39,254 bases of DNA from UHGV virus genome UHGV-0143367. One strand, written 5' to 3'. Under the pieces are notes generated by a model. That model was not told the origin of the DNA and did not search any database. It saw only the letters and a program-made list of their open reading frames with translations. Shown here piece after piece: positions 14,991 through 29,991 of this stretch (positions are counted from its first letter, which is position 1; every line of letters starts with the position of its first letter). The position numbers and the translations under genes were made by a program. This DNA is from a virus.

Positions 14991-15175
14991 TAGTTGTTCC
15001 CCTTGTTAGCTGACTGACCCAGATATTTAGCCCACATACATGAGCAAAAAACACAGAGAACGCCGCCGGTGATTAGTCCCGCTGCGGGAGAAAATAGCCA
15101 TGCGCCGGCAGAGATCATGACGGCGCCGGCCAGACCAATCAGAAAAATCAGAACCGAGATCGCTGCTGTTAACAT
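14990..15175 (-). CDS. Small hydrophobic protein between terL and portal
   Basis: 61 aa, two predicted transmembrane stretches, tightly packed between flanking genes. Confidence 0.3.
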   Translation of the reverse strand: MLTAAISVLIFLIGLAGAVMISAGAWLFSPAAGLITGGVLCVFCSCMWAKYLGQSANKGNN

Positions 15176-16890
15176 GCCACGTCTTCCTCGTCATAAATGG
15201 ATTTGCCGCCCCCGCCTCCGCCGTTCTGCAGCGCGCGCGTAAGGGCGTTAAACAACGCTGTCGCGCCGTCGATTTTTGATTGTTTATCGCCTTTTGTCGG
15301 GCGAACGACGTCATCGCTGCCGGGAATGAACTTCCCGATAACGTTGCTGATACACCAGGTGAGAATCGGATTGCCGTCGTGGTGGAATCTCCCGCCAGCG
15401 AGCGCCGCTTCCAGCTCGTTCATCGCCGGAGACATGTTCTGGAAGTTCTGCGTGATCTCCACACATTCAACCCCGTCATCCTCCAGTAAATGGCGCAGCG
15501 CTGTCGCGCCGGCGGGGTCGATGTCCGCCTCTTTAATCCTGATTTCCTGCCGCAGATCGAGGATGCTGGCGTGAATCTCACGATAATCAGCCTCGGCGCC
15601 ATCGGTCGCCTCCAGTACCTTCATCGTGACGAATTTCCGGTACCGGTCAGCAGCTTTAAGGTGCTTAGGATCGGTGCTGTGAACTGTATCTTCCGGGACC
15701 CAAAATTTGGGGGCCACGGAGTAGTAGTGCTTCTTGCCCTCAATTTCCCGCGTGAATAAAGGTATGCAGGCGTTCATATCGAGCTTTTTCGCGAGATCCA
15801 GCCCCAGATTGGCATCGTCATCAGTAAAGTCCGACAGCTTCAGCGTCTTATCTTCGGCTTCTTTCCACTGCTCCATATTGAAGAACGCTGCGGCACCGGA
15901 AACCCACATATTCAGACGCTTTGTCTTAAATGCGTTCGTCATACGCGGGACTTTCTTTGCCACTTCCAGCAGCTCGACCAGATCGCTGTATTTCACCGAG
16001 ACATCGAGGTTCGGGTTGGCTTTAATCAGGTTTGCCGGGTCAGTCCAGTCGTCCCCCTGATCCAGCTCGTAAATCATGCCAAACAGTCGATCGTTCGGGG
16101 TGATTTCGTCCAGCGCCTCTTTGACCTCTTTGTCCTTGTCGTAACAAGGTGATTCGAGGTCAGTACCGGCAGTGGTAATAATCAGCGTCAACGGCTGAGA
16201 ACGGGCGCCCATGCCCGTCGTCATCGCCTGGTAAAGACGGTCTGTTTTGTGCTCGTGGTATTCGTCAATGATGGCGCAGCTGGGTGAGTCACCATCACCA
16301 GGGTCGCCGACCACCGGCGCAAATATGGAGCCGTCCGGACGCGTCAGCTTCTCGGTCCAGACTGAAACATCAAACCGCCGGCGCAGCGCTGGCAGCATTT
16401 TTGCTATTTGTTGGGCTGGGGTGAAGACCTTCTTGGCCTGCCTCATCTGCGTGGCGCCACAGTAGACTTCTGCGCTATTTTCGCCATCAGCGCAGAACAT
16501 ATACATACCAATGCCCGCAGAGATAAACGATTTACCGTTTTTACGGGCAACGCGGATGTAGGCTTCCTTAAAGCGTCGTTTTTTGTTGGATTTCGTAACC
16601 CAGCCGAAGATCGAGCAGAAAGCGAAGGCTTGCCACATTTCCAGCTTCAGTTTCTGCCCTTTGAGGTCCCCACTGGAGTGGGGTAGCAGCTGAACAAATC
16701 GACATGCACGTTCAGCTAAATCCCGGTCAAATCGGTACGGATAATCCTTATCCAGTGATTTTTTCAGGTCGTCAAAATGGCGCTGGCAGGCCAGCCGGAT
16801 GTATTTACAGGCGACTATGCTGCCGCTGAGCACATCACGCGCATACTGATTCGCCAGATTGACGTTCGGGTATGCGGCCATATAACTCAT
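15169..16890 (-). CDS. Terminase large subunit
   Basis: ORF-track ORF starts at a TTG directly after the terS stop; more probable start is the ATG for MSYMAAYPNV at ~16890. Size and position typical of TerL. Confidence 0.85.
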   Translation of the reverse strand: MSYMAAYPNVNLANQYARDVLSGSIVACKYIRLACQRHFDDLKKSLDKDYPYRFDRDLAERACRFVQLLPHSSGDLKGQKLKLEMWQAFAFCSIFGWVTKSNKKRRFKEAYIRVARKNGKSFISAGIGMYMFCADGENSAEVYCGATQMRQAKKVFTPAQQIAKMLPALRRRFDVSVWTEKLTRPDGSIFAPVVGDPGDGDSPSCAIIDEYHEHKTDRLYQAMTTGMGARSQPLTLIITTAGTDLESPCYDKDKEVKEALDEITPNDRLFGMIYELDQGDDWTDPANLIKANPNLDVSVKYSDLVELLEVAKKVPRMTNAFKTKRLNMWVSGAAAFFNMEQWKEAEDKTLKLSDFTDDDANLGLDLAKKLDMNACIPLFTREIEGKKHYYSVAPKFWVPEDTVHSTDPKHLKAADRYRKFVTMKVLEATDGAEADYREIHASILDLRQEIRIKEADIDPAGATALRHLLEDDGVECVEITQNFQNMSPAMNELEAALAGGRFHHDGNPILTWCISNVIGKFIPGSDDVVRPTKGDKQSKIDGATALFNALTRALQNGGGGGGKSIYDEEDVAC

Positions 16891-16900
16891 CCATAAAAAA

Positions 16901-16916
16901 TGGGACCGTGGTCCCA
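16901..16916. repeat. SopB-box-like inverted repeat TGGGACC-GT-GGTCCCA at the terS/terL junction
   Basis: Direct sequence match; overlaps the terS stop codon. Confidence 0.65.
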
Positions 16917-16917
16917 A

Positions 16918-17376
16918 TTAAAAATCGTCGAAATCGTTTCCCGCTTCTCTGCCACCTTGCCCCGGATTAGCAACTCTGACCCGGCTGTTCGGGTCCAGTT
17001 TCAGAACGACGCTCAGCCTGATGAGCTGCGAAATGTACTTATCGCGCGCTTTCACCGCGGCGCCCAGCTTCTGGCCGCCGGCAGCAGTTTCATCGCCTAT
17101 CCCGTCGCCTTTGATTTCCTGATTCGCGTCGTACAGCAGCTGCACGGTGTTGCAGTACTCCATCAGCAGGTAGCAATCTTCCATCTCAAAATTTCCACGG
17201 TCGATCATCAGCCGGCAGGTCCGTTTCCAGGCATCGACTGCCATATCACCCAGCAATTCCTCTGGCGGTGAAACGGCGCGAGTTACGGAACTGACCTGCG
17301 TGCCGGCATTGTTCGGTTTCCGGCCTCCGCCAGGAGAGCGCACTCCTGTCGCCATTCGTGCACCTCCATGCATCAA
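16918..17376 (-). CDS. Terminase small subunit
   Basis: 152 aa immediately upstream of terL; Gly-rich N-terminus. Confidence 0.7.
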   Translation of the reverse strand: MMHGGARMATGVRSPGGGRKPNNAGTQVSSVTRAVSPPEELLGDMAVDAWKRTCRLMIDRGNFEMEDCYLLMEYCNTVQLLYDANQEIKGDGIGDETAAGGQKLGAAVKARDKYISQLIRLSVVLKLDPNSRVRVANPGQGGREAGNDFDDF

Positions 17377-18171
17377 TTGCGTTTTCTGTTACGTTAAAAA
17401 TCACCAAAAAAAAGATCTTATTTCCCACGCGTAAAAATCGACTTGAAGCGGCAGTCCTCAAACACGAAAGGGGTTAGGGATTTTCCCCCCCCCCCCTACC
17501 CCCCGGCTGGCGGCGGTTCTGTAGCCGGCCTGCCGGGGTCCGCTGCTCAGGGCGCGCGGGTCGGGCAATGGGTGTGTGGGCCAGGCGCTGATCTTCTGGT
17601 TGCCGTCGGTGCGGCTGCAATTCACCACAACTGGAAGCGCCCTGGCCTCACACCGCATGCTGAGGCGTGGTGGTTGTCCATCGGGTTCAGGACGCTTCCA
17701 TGTTATGAGCTGGCAATAAAAATCCCGGCGTACCGGGATTCGCTCTGCTGACCCTTGCAGTGGGAGACTGGATCACCTCCTTCATTGCGCTTATGGGTGG
17801 CGCACTCATCACAAGGAGAAGGGCACCAGAAAGCTGTGGCGGGTTATCGCCACTCTTTCCCTGAAGGGTGGCCCTTAGAGCTATGCGCCAACGTTCTGAT
17901 GCCCTTATCGCTGTGATGCCGCCACACTTTCGCAGTGGCCGCGCCCATGCCGTGGGTGGCGCTTAGGGTTCGTCTCTGCTCCCCCGCAGCTGTAACCGGT
18001 GCGCTTATCGGCGTTCGCGCTGCCTTACCGGTGCTTCTTTTCTTATTAACCCTCACCAGATGCAAAGCTGGCTCTCTACTCGGAGACTAGGGGGCCGGTT
18101 ACTACCCAGCCATCGCCGCCGTTCGGCTGCTGCGGTCTACCCGCTTTAATGCTTCATCTTCTTTCCCTCCG
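17377..18171. other. Non-coding GC-rich region upstream of terS; putative cos packaging region containing a C12 homopolymer
   Basis: About 800 bp with no convincing ORF; HNH-terS-terL arrangement typical of cos packaging; C12 run at 17485-17496 followed by TACCCCCC. Confidence 0.4.
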
Positions 18172-18372
18172 TCAGTCCAGATAGAAATTGTCATTCAGCC
18201 GGCGACGATTGCCGTTGCTGGCGTTATGGGGGCAGGCATCCGATGAATGCCCAGCGCCACCGCAATATGAGCAGCGTAGGTTGGCACGGCGGGAAGAACC
18301 GCCCCACGTTTTAGGGCAGTTCGCTACGGTATGCAGCTGCGAGCCGCAGTAGGTACAACGGATATATGCCAT
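18172..18372 (-). CDS. Small protein with two tandem CCHC zinc knuckles (CX2CX4HX4C)
   Basis: 66 aa; CTYCGSQLHTVANC and CSYCGGAGHSSDAC both fit C-X2-C-X4-H-X4-C. Confidence 0.5.
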   Translation of the reverse strand: MAYIRCTYCGSQLHTVANCPKTWGGSSRRANLRCSYCGGAGHSSDACPHNASNGNRRRLNDNFYLD

Positions 18373-18734
18373 CAGTTAAACCGCTCCTTAGCTGTCTTCC
18401 GGCGGTGGCATGGCCAGCACAACGATTCGAGGTTGCTATCGTCATCGGTGCCGCCGTGGGCTTTCGGGATGATGTGATCCACACTTTCAGCTTTCATGCC
18501 TATGCCCCGGCGCCGGCAGTCCTGGCAGAGATATTTATCCCGCATCAGAATGCGATCGCGGCGTATCTCCCATGGTCTTCCATACCCGCGATCCTGTCGG
18601 CTCTTCCCTGGCTGGTAATTACGCCAGCCATCACCGGCGTGCTGCTGGCGATGGCTATCGCAATATCCTGATGGGTCGTTAGTGGCGGTAGAGCATCCTT
18701 TGTGCTTACAAGGGCGCTTAGCGCGGGCTGGCAT
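18372..18734 (-). CDS. HNH endonuclease (terminase-associated)
   Basis: C-terminal CQDCRRRG...VDHIIPKAHGGTDDDSNLESLCWPCHRRK HNH motif; start trimmed to internal Met (MPARAKRP) because the longer ORF overlaps the upstream gene. Confidence 0.8.
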   Translation of the reverse strand: MPARAKRPCKHKGCSTATNDPSGYCDSHRQQHAGDGWRNYQPGKSRQDRGYGRPWEIRRDRILMRDKYLCQDCRRRGIGMKAESVDHIIPKAHGGTDDDSNLESLCWPCHRRKTAKERFN

Positions 18735-19698
18735 TATCGTTTCCCAGCGCGTTGAAAGCAGATCGTACCGCACGAGCCAGGGCAATAGCCGCTTCTTCGG
18801 TTCGACCCCCTGGTACGTTGGGGAGAGTAGCGGCGAGCACTGCTGATAATGTTTCTTTCGCAATATCGTGGCAGGAAAGACCCAATGATGCTGTATGTGC
18901 AAGTGGTGGTAATGCTTTCGATACCATGGTGCTGCTATCACCCCAATTACTGATGATGATTCGCCCACCGCCAGCCAGATTGACAACCATGTCCTTATCG
19001 CTCACCTCAAATGAAATGCCATGAATGTTACTATCGGCACCAGATGCGGACGGGGCATCGTTTACGTTAATGCTCATAGATGCTGTATAGGTTAATGGCG
19101 TTATCTCACCGCAGCTCGTATGTTGCTTAAAGATTTGAGAGGATACTCGGGCATTTGCTATAGCCTGAGCCAGAACGTTCACAGCATCCCCGATACATGG
19201 GCGACCACTTTTCCAAGCATCGTCAAGAATCTTACCTACATCGATGTTGCTATTACTGGTCTTCGGCTTCAGCGTTTCTGCCGCGTGGATAGTTTCCGAA
19301 ATAAATGCGTTATTGATGAAGACTTCACCGTTTTCAATCTTAAATTTTGGTGCAACAAAAGAGGTCATTAAGCACATGTCGTTACTACCAGCCATTGCAT
19401 TGAGGTACTCTTCTGCATTGCTGGATGACACACCTTCGATCCAGTCACTTCCCATCCAATCACGAACTGCACCATTTTTATCAATCGGTCGTAAGCGAAT
19501 CTGCAGGCGTTCGCCACCCTTAAGGCCACCGATTAACGCTCCAACTAATGGCCATGCGATAACCTGTCTTTTCAAACGTCCATCGGCGTTGAGATACTGC
19601 ATTTCAAGCCGCGAATGCTCGCCGCTATTTTCTGGCCACTGCCATTCAACCTGGATACCCCAGACTCGGGGTGACGTTAATACTTGCGGAAGTTGCAT
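18718..19698 (-). CDS. Hypothetical 326-aa protein, possible N-terminal FN3/Ig-like fold
   Basis: AAGGA Shine-Dalgarno before ATG; lower GC than the structural block; no recognisable catalytic motif. Confidence 0.45.
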   Translation of the reverse strand: MQLPQVLTSPRVWGIQVEWQWPENSGEHSRLEMQYLNADGRLKRQVIAWPLVGALIGGLKGGERLQIRLRPIDKNGAVRDWMGSDWIEGVSSSNAEEYLNAMAGSNDMCLMTSFVAPKFKIENGEVFINNAFISETIHAAETLKPKTSNSNIDVGKILDDAWKSGRPCIGDAVNVLAQAIANARVSSQIFKQHTSCGEITPLTYTASMSINVNDAPSASGADSNIHGISFEVSDKDMVVNLAGGGRIIISNWGDSSTMVSKALPPLAHTASLGLSCHDIAKETLSAVLAATLPNVPGGRTEEAAIALARAVRSAFNALGNDNASPR

Positions 19699-29066: not shown

Positions 29067-29369
29067 TTAAATATTCATCTTTTTTGCAAGACTTTCATTT
29101 TGTTGCTCTGTATAGCGCTTTAACCAAAGCTCCTGAATATGCTGGTCACCTGGTTTATTTGCGCCACACCACTCCGCAATAACGGCATTTCGACACCAGT
29201 CAGGATGTGTTCTGAATCCGCAAGATGGACAAAACATCAAATATTCATTGCGTAGCTCAGATCTAACTAATTTCGGTTTTACTGCGTGGTGATGCATTAC
29301 TTGTTTGCAAAGGCAGGAAGGAATTTCACCGCCTGTTGCTGATATGCTTCTTCCGTAATTGGTCGACAT
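29067..29369 (-). CDS. Small Cys/His-rich (zinc-ribbon-like) protein
   Basis: 100 aa with CLC...H, CPSCG, C...C clusters; function unknown. Confidence 0.4.
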   Translation of the reverse strand: MSTNYGRSISATGGEIPSCLCKQVMHHHAVKPKLVRSELRNEYLMFCPSCGFRTHPDWCRNAVIAEWCGANKPGDQHIQELWLKRYTEQQNESLAKKMNI

Positions 29370-29991
29370 GTATTAACGCCTCCCGATCCATTTGAACACC
29401 GCAGGCCAACATGACATCCCAGCGATTTTTATAATTCTTCCGCCATAGGTCATATTTCACACCACATAGCTGGCTCAATTCTTCCTGGCTGTATTTAAGC
29501 TCGCCGCGGTTAATGAAATTTTTTGATTCCTGTAGAGCCAACCAGGCAAGTGCTTTTAAGTTGCTTTCAGTCTTGCCGTTCATTTTTGGCGATTTGCTTT
29601 CAGCCAAGTTAATCAGCAGGGAATGCCAGATATGTGTTGTCAGTATTGTTTGATATTCAAATGAAATTGAATCGCCGTAGCAGTAATTCAACCAGGATTT
29701 ATACGGCTCAGGCATTTTCAATAACGCGCTACGCCATGACACCTGGCTAAAAATGGCTGGCGATACCGGGATCATGCTCGTATGGTAACGCTTGCCTTCT
29801 CTGTAGCTGATTGGCTCGGCATCAATGACAATGACAGTGTCGTTATCGATATCAATTTCACGCTGCGGCTTTGCAGTAAATCGGCTCTGCAGTGGCGCAC
29901 GTTCTGCCATCGCGATGATCTGATTGCGGTGCGATTTTGAGAACGACAAAAGCGCTGCAGTAAGCTCGTTGCGAACAAAATTAAACTGCAT
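29326..29991 (-). CDS. Hypothetical regulatory protein (candidate late antiterminator Q by position)
   Basis: 221-aa ORF downstream of cro in the immunity region; no motif confirmed. Confidence 0.35.
   Translation of the reverse strand: MQFNFVRNELTAALLSFSKSHRNQIIAMAERAPLQSRFTAKPQREIDIDNDTVIVIDAEPISYREGKRYHTSMIPVSPAIFSQVSWRSALLKMPEPYKSWLNYCYGDSISFEYQTILTTHIWHSLLINLAESKSPKMNGKTESNLKALAWLALQESKNFINRGELKYSQEELSQLCGVKYDLWRKNYKNRWDVMLACGVQMDREALIHVDQLRKKHISNRR

Follow-up and report, generated by a model that had tools for sequence, protein, structure and literature searches.

The window analysed (the whole 39,254-nt stretch of virus genome UHGV-0143367) belongs to an N15/phiKO2-like phage-plasmid. 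It encodes a RepA-type replicase, a repressor, a Q-like antiterminator and a 633-aa phrog_5272 protein which, on account of its size, we take to be the protelomerase (N15 TelN has ∼631 aa). The HNH endonuclease, 66-aa protein and terminase genes (18372–18986, 18172–18372 and 15169–17376) lie around cos in the arrangement typical of HK97-like cos packaging, all on the minus strand, as the original prediction had stated. In the alignment with phiKO2, the right end of that genome falls at window position 17444; the Shine-Dalgarno (SD)-like tract studied here (the motif; Table 1) thus lies ∼330 bp from the cohesive-end site, and the cos-proximal location proposed for it was correct. At the cos block, a homopolymer-rich tract (17481–17510; GGGGGGTAGGGGGGGGGGGGAAAATCCC on the minus strand) contains a G-run whose length differed among relatives, which is either true variation beside the cohesive-end site or assembly noise. 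A consensus scan detected no sigma-70-like promoter in 17200–18500, and a tRNA/tmRNA scan gave no match.

Table 1. Features at and around the SD-like tract (positions refer to the window)
Feature	Position	Strand	Remarks
HNH endonuclease gene	18372–18986	−	
66-aa gene	18172–18372	−	CxxC-rich, zinc-ribbon-like protein; stop codon 18174–18172
SD and mini-ORF	18146–18170	−	GGAGGG 18170–18165; ATG AAG CAT TAA 18157–18146; directly 5′ of the structured RNA
Structured RNA domain	17921–18143	−	multi-helix; anchor CGGGTAGACCGCAGC 18143–18129; terminal GNRA hairpin 17940–17921
Long hairpin	17807–17918	−	stable, clade-specific; between structured RNA and motif
Orphan SD-like tract (motif)	17769–17782	−	AAGGAGGTGATCC(A); 13–14 nt perfect complement of the 16S 3′ tail
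Intrinsic terminator	17715–17741	−	stem 17741/17740–17733, loop TACG, stem 17728–17720/17721, T-rich tail
Short homologous segment	17577–17625	−	matches the inside of the mEp213 hairpin before an N-like gene
cos block	17396–17507		conserved with phiKO2-like phages; downstream limit of the inserted cassette
terS (small terminase)	16918–17376	−	
terL (large terminase)	15169–16917	−	
Q-like antiterminator gene	29326–29991		

The motif lies in what sequence comparison indicates to be a ∼660-bp non-coding cassette (∼17508–18171), an insertion that separates the 66-aa gene from cos in one N15/phiKO2-like clade. In most of 67 more distant loci, gathered by TerS similarity (69–87% amino-acid identity), the homologue of the 66-aa gene ends ∼30 bp from the cos block; the intervening ∼17508–18171 is therefore an insertion. 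The motif was absent upstream of terS, at up to two mismatches, from all 67. Read 5′ to 3′ on the minus strand, the cassette begins with an SD and a mini-ORF, followed by the structured RNA domain (the 5′ half of the cassette, ∼225 nt, ∼140 bases upstream of the motif), the long hairpin, a 24-nt spacer and the motif. A 27-nt spacer, the terminator and ∼200 nt that include 17625–17577 then lead to the cos block (17507–17396) and terS. The 5′ part (18170–17922) was the only part of the cassette with homologues outside the clade, which were found in phiKO2, Edwardsiella phage EPP-1, mEp213, many plasmids and E. coli prophages, always unannotated. The motif-bearing tail (17626–17912) had no homologue in blastn searches of phages, plasmids and E. 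coli genomes, nor, with sensitive blastn, in 190 fetched loci. The pattern AGTCTCCCACTGCAAGGG gave no match in IMG/VR and six unrelated chance matches in JGI metagenomes, and a pattern for the terminator gave none in IMG/VR.

The sequence 17925 to 17712, which spans the long hairpin, folded with a predicted −92.8 kcal/mol (z = −4.9). No homologue of this hairpin was found beyond the clade, and its differences among relatives were mostly G-C to G-U changes. The terminator, starting ∼30 nt downstream of the motif, was predicted as a 9-bp hairpin in both the minimum free energy (MFE) and centroid folds, and only one of its 28 columns varied in a comparison of seven related sequences. A simple consensus scan missed this minus-strand terminator, probably because the G-U extension of its stem uses one T. 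Plausibly, it keeps unmodified polymerase from crossing cos and reaching the genes for packaging and structure but lets Q-modified polymerase read through, an idea based on the operon layout and the presence of the Q-like gene. Further downstream, the non-coding segment 17577–17625 (minus strand) was 85–88% identical across unrelated phages, with counterparts in L003 (2376–2420), Stx1 phage SH2026Stx1 (10016–10064) and Klebsiella phage phiKp_30 (1294–1342). The mEp213 counterpart forms the inside of a long hairpin that has the structured RNA on one side and, on the other, an N-like gene preceded by an SD of its own; the window has no gene after the segment.

The original prediction had reported a 13-nt identity to the 3′ end of 16S rRNA, and GGATCACCTCCTT indeed occurs exactly once in the window, as an exact match at 17770–17782 on the plus strand. 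The minus strand reads AAGGAGGTGATCC from 17782 to 17770; base 17769 is A, and adding it extends this complement to 14 nt. The perfect extended SD announced for the transcribed strand is thus present as AAGGAGGTGATCCA (17782 to 17769), a 14-nt perfect complement of an enterobacterial (E. coli-type) 16S tail, which we take to be ...GGTTGGATCACCTCCTTA-3′. With up to one mismatch allowed, 0.03 matches to GGATCACCTCCTT were expected per shuffled window (3 of 100 shuffles contained one), and the probability of at least 13 nt of 16S complementarity was 0.007 in 300 block shuffles of the window; for a perfect 14-nt match, the chance probability is ∼0.002–0.007 per window. The second-longest 16S complementarity in the whole window was 9 nt, and RBS-like matches preceding a start codon reached at most 7 nt. 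The duplex between the motif and the 16S tail was predicted at −28 kcal/mol, versus −10 to −16 kcal/mol for the duplexes of three real RBSs from the window. A predicted 2–5 kcal/mol would be needed to open the tract, and 2.3 kcal/mol to open GGAGG alone; in the predicted ensemble GGAGG is weakly paired with UCUCC at 17765–17761. The motif is therefore a real sequence and a priori an unusual one, of which no description was found in the searchable literature.

Two candidate pairings of the tract were rejected. CCTTCTCCTT, on the 3′ arm of the long hairpin, pairs within that hairpin in the MFE fold rather than with the motif downstream, and the substitutions found in relatives L198 and L201 were not compensatory in that register. 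The GGAGG/UCUCC mini-hairpin was predicted but is weak, and it was not kept in L198.

A captured fragment of a 16S rRNA gene would account for the 13–14 nt that the plus strand shares with the 3′ terminus of 16S rRNA, and the original prediction had offered an rRNA-derived remnant as one origin. The identity nevertheless stops abruptly at 14 nt on both sides, no match to the SSU rRNA model was obtained with Rfam in 17300–18450 at E ≤ 10, and neither a tRNA nor any other remnant of an rRNA operon is present. The flanks are also unlike the 16S 3′ domain and the 16S–23S spacer of E. coli. For practical purposes this origin thus appears refuted by the sequence, and we give it next to no credence. 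The only Rfam alignment over the motif in 17300–18450 (E ≤ 10) was to RF01867, the Caulobacter sRNA CC2171 (window 17721–17792, minus strand). Membership in that family was rejected, the score being 18.3 bits against a gathering threshold of 75 (E = 0.22) with an 87-nt internal part of the model missing. The alignment arises from the SD string and a generic terminator: the CC2171 consensus has AAGGAGGUGAUCCAGU followed by a terminator, and this extended anti-16S string is thus also carried by another RNA. No Rfam family reached its gathering threshold anywhere in the window.

A translational role was considered in light of the start codons available. The original prediction had noted that no usable start codon follows the SD, and none of ATG, GTG or TTG was found on the minus strand from the motif to 17701. 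The nearest conceivable codons are ATC (17773) and CTG (17760), 2 and 15 nt from GGAGG, respectively. Like a canonical SD, the motif is perfectly complementary to the 16S 3′ tail on the mRNA-sense strand, but it differs in lacking a start codon at 4–12 nt and a conserved ORF, in not being conserved itself, and in its length of 14 nt, twice that of the functional RBSs of this genome (at most 7 nt). The motif might instead be the RBS of a cryptic small ORF, starting either at one of these two minus-strand codons or, on the plus strand, at the GTG of a 34-aa hydrophobic ORF (17760–17864). The SD sequence itself would be ideal, and the plus-strand frame would encode a short hydrophobic segment followed by RRR, reminiscent of small membrane peptides. 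Both minus-strand codons, though, fall outside workable spacing, and no SD precedes the plus-strand GTG. Every ORF that crosses the motif, on either strand, was interrupted in relatives: in L195 by TAG in both the minus-strand frame (ATC TAG) and the plus-strand ORF (GAC TAG), and in L219 by a frameshift in the minus-strand frame due to an altered T-run length and by loss of all downstream similarity in the plus-strand ORF. The frame downstream of the SD has therefore not been kept open, and a coding role for the motif region was rejected on both strands. Two nearby ORFs, neither of which covers the motif, had no PHROG match. The stop codons appear largely to refute a cryptic ORF, which we hold to be very improbable. 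SD-like stimulators of frameshifting or pausing (prfB, dnaX) resemble the motif in being strong SD-like tracts unused for initiation. Those stimulators lie in translated ORFs at a fixed distance upstream of a slippery site, whereas the motif lies in no translated ORF.

Conservation was examined in 22 same-clade loci, from Citrobacter-type assemblies and metagenomes, on contigs encoding an identical 66-aa protein or TerS, or TerS variants 88–93% identical. In four of them (L197, L208, L213 and L217) a large DNA methylase replaces the HNH gene. The exact AAGGAGGTGATCC was present in 15 loci (L192–194, L196, L197, L199, L200, L208–212, L214, L215 and L217), and the motif was intact in most haplotypes, the more diverged L209–L215 group included. 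The remaining motifs were AAGGAGGTGATCT (...GATCT) in L195, AAGGAGGTGGTCC (...GGTCC, with loss of GATC) in L218, TAAGGAGGTGATCG in L219, and AAGAAGGCGATCC in L198 and L201. The last of these (the L198 variant is also written AAGAAGGCG) combines a G-to-A change in the core with a T-to-C change, and its predicted duplex is reduced to −17 kcal/mol, versus −28. L219 retains 13 nt of complementarity in a register shifted by one (TAAGGAGGTGATC). None of the substitutions in the motif was compensated in any predicted pairing partner.

The variable positions of the motif were 17779, 17775, 17773 and 17770. Across 11 distinct haplotypes of 18169–17700, this amounts to 4 of 13 positions, versus 57 of 470 (12%) for the region overall, and only 12% of 13-nt windows were as variable. 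In the seven-sequence comparison (18170–17715), 23% of the motif columns varied, against 4–9% for each of the mini-ORF, structured RNA, hairpin, spacers and terminator. Since the relatives are close (90–100% identical), the power to detect weak selection with these counts is limited. In L213 and L216 the whole cassette, structured RNA included, is absent, although they have the same cos block and TerS proteins 92–93% identical; ∼100 nt of AT-rich sequence (L213 2257–2355 and the same region of L216) replaces the 660-bp cassette (window 17508–18171). A similar AT-rich sequence replaces window ∼17510–17615 in L195. The variation in the motif, together with the loss of the cassette from L213 and L216, indicates that the motif was present in the ancestor of the clade, can be dispensed with, and decays no more slowly than the sequence around it. 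Judged from these alignments, the pattern is that of neutral sequence and not of a selected ribosome-binding element, which would be expected to show purifying selection on the SD core. The original prediction had named absence from close relatives as the outcome that would speak against it, and this was found in part.

The same relatives bear on a possible function at the DNA level, for instance as a Dam GATC or as a cos-adjacent site for a host factor or for accessory packaging, the likeness to an SD being incidental. The motif does contain GATC and lies ∼330 bp from the cohesive-end site, yet it is on the side of the right genome end, far beyond the conserved cos block (17396–17507); GATC is lost in L218, and L213 and L216, whose packaging relies on the same cos and TerS, have no cassette. 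A DNA site is thus highly unlikely.

An alternative with somewhat more in its favour, unlikely as we consider it, is that the motif works by docking 30S subunits without translation, as a parking, standby or decoy site on a late or read-through transcript. Docking might protect the RNA tail, influence the folding of the terminator or read-through, or keep ribosomes near RNA polymerase while it crosses the untranslated sequence ahead of cos. The 14-nt match and its predicted −28 kcal/mol, well beyond the −10 to −16 of real RBSs, agree with such a role, as do the weak sequestration of the tract (2.3 kcal/mol opens GGAGG) and its persistence in most haplotypes, in L219 in a shifted register. The cassette, moreover, starts with a strictly conserved SD and start-stop mini-ORF, so ribosome loading seems to matter to this RNA family; it is this SD and mini-ORF at the other end of the cassette that make ribosome loading a theme of the structured RNA. 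Set against this, the motif is more variable than its flanks, its core is destroyed without compensation in L198 and L201, near relatives that share cos and TerS do without the cassette, and the 48 other copies of the family have nothing corresponding to the motif. The site is also near the 3′ terminator and not at a 5′ end. By standard footprint sizes, a ribosome anchored at this SD would protect the RNA to ∼17751–17755, which leaves 10 nt or more between its edge and the terminator stem (17741/17740). The ribosome-binding decoy put forward in the original prediction accordingly finds no support in the relatives, with 4 of 13 positions variable versus 12%, AAGAAGGCGATCC in one lineage and the cassette absent from others.

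The closest precedent for docking is the STAB-SD, an SD-like mRNA stabiliser without a start codon that Agaisse and Lereclus reportedly described in 1996 in the cryIIIA 5′-UTR of Bacillus thuringiensis. The motif shares with it the character of an orphan SD able, at least potentially, to bind 30S subunits without initiation. It differs in that the STAB-SD is near the 5′ end of a stable Gram-positive mRNA, while the motif, 30 nt ahead of a terminator, belongs to the 3′ end of a long RNA that is untranslated and encoded by an enterobacterial phage, and its sequence is drifting; nor did the scan of 17200–18500 detect a sigma-70-like promoter that would place it near the 5′ end of a protected mRNA.

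Copies of the structured RNA in the 5′ half of the cassette were gathered from IMG/VR with the anchor CGGNTAGACCGCAGC and a profile, giving more than 60, of which 49 were unique; the window copy matched the profile of the other copies with an nhmmer E-value of 2.7e-49. The loci comprise window 17921–18170 (minus strand), L001 798–1050, L002 2497–2751, L003 2447–2685 and the more than 60 IMG/VR loci (L072–L190). An SD and a start-stop mini-ORF preceded the RNA in all 49 unique copies (46 recognized by script and three by eye). The spacer between SD and start was 4–11 nt, mostly 8, and the start codon was ATG (ATC in one copy), followed by 0–3 sense codons (six in one copy), which gives mini-ORFs of 1–4 codons, once 7. 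The stop codon ended 1–9 nt before the anchor, or inside it in one copy. RNAalifold, applied to a 45-copy alignment, predicted 38 pairs in 11 helices. In this alignment 97.7% of the cells were paired, versus 26–38% when the partners were slid, and 19 pairs showed compensatory double changes, in 156 cells. None of 500 shuffles reached any of five structure measures. The frequency of G-U pairs identifies the gene strand as the RNA strand. Rfam 15 gave no match over 17921–18170 at E ≤ 10, and no description of this RNA was found in the searchable literature.

Copies of the structured RNA were found in enterobacterial phages, phage-plasmids and prophages. Some are directly behind Q-like antiterminator genes, after a tR′-like terminator, and others precede N-like (phrog_271) or holin genes or follow Rz spanin genes; the copies of the window and of phiKO2 are ahead of cos and terS. 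These are nut-, put- or qut-type locations, a likeness to the lambda nut and HK022 put elements, and the minigene of 1–4 codons (once 7) with which the RNA begins recalls the lambda bar minigenes. No boxA or boxB was noticed by eye in the structured RNA. Identity with the HK022 put RNA, which is ∼70 nt long and forms two stem-loops (PMC9378689), was rejected: there was no putL/putR-type similarity, a search of HK022 region 24000–40578 with the structured-RNA profile gave no match, and size and architecture differ (∼225 nt, 11 predicted helices). A reasonable hypothesis, derived from the predicted fold, is that the RNA is a ribosome-sensing or antitermination-related leader, since termination on the mini-ORF would leave a ribosome sitting over the 5′ strand of the first helices.

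Conceivably, the orphan SD might serve, in this lineage, as a functional accessory to a ribosome-sensing leader RNA of a class not yet described, made up of the ∼225-nt element with its obligatory SD and start-stop mini-ORF. The mini-ORF at the 5′ end would take up one ribosome and the orphan SD would capture another, and the two would jointly control the folding of the leader and the passage of polymerase through the terminator guarding cos and the genes for packaging and structure. We regard such an accessory role as decidedly improbable.

The most probable explanation, held with reasonable though not strong confidence, is that the motif is a neutral, probably relic SD-like tract and not a working element. 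It lies in an untranslated, clade-specific spacer between the long hairpin and the terminator, in the 3′ tail of the ∼660-bp cassette of these Citrobacter-type N15/phiKO2-like phage-plasmids. Its likeliest origin would be the RBS of a small gene deleted at a mosaic joint, which left a remnant of a moron or of an N-like cassette; alternatively, the purine-rich run may be fortuitous. L219 is informative here: homology with the window ends after the long hairpin and resumes exactly at the motif, and at 1892–2024 L219 carries an unrelated 132-nt insert that contains two short hairpins and ends in an intrinsic terminator of its own (ggggctgacaacggctgtcagcccc ttctt). In L219 the motif is thus at a module boundary, right after a terminator, as the RBSs of phage morons are. 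Resumption of homology at the motif reads as the signature of such a boundary. Phage mosaic joints are usually found at gene boundaries, where the RBS sits (lambdoid mosaicism). This joint and the mEp213-like segment that no gene follows make the cassette look like a degraded ‘RNA – hairpins – small gene’ module, of which the SD would plausibly be the orphaned RBS of a lost gene.

No relative with an intact ancestral gene was found among the 190 fetched loci, IMG/VR and JGI metagenomes, and the 475-nt tails of the 48 other structured-RNA copies contained at most 8 nt of 16S complementarity. What counts against neutrality is the match itself, since 14 nt are improbable by chance and surpass every real RBS of the phage by a wide margin. 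As to the ‘chance’ origin listed in the original prediction, neutral sequence is compatible with the data, but these agree slightly better with a once-real RBS that has decayed at a mosaic joint. The sequences themselves show that the motif is present, on which strand it lies, that it lacks a start codon, that the ORFs across it are broken, that it varies and that the cassette is dispensable; its relic origin and its lack of function are what we infer. The motif would now be drifting neutrally, and any 30S docking on the transcript would meet no start codon, lead to no initiation and not be something the phage depends on.

The motif illustrates that neutral sequence can match the 16S tail to a statistically striking degree, and that comparison with relatives is a simple test, which the decoy idea fails. 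A functional motif would be a rare example of a phage that uses ribosome docking without translation. The practical value of the locus lies in the neighbouring structured RNA, which is the more interesting object: widespread, strongly covarying and unannotated, at junctions relevant to antitermination.
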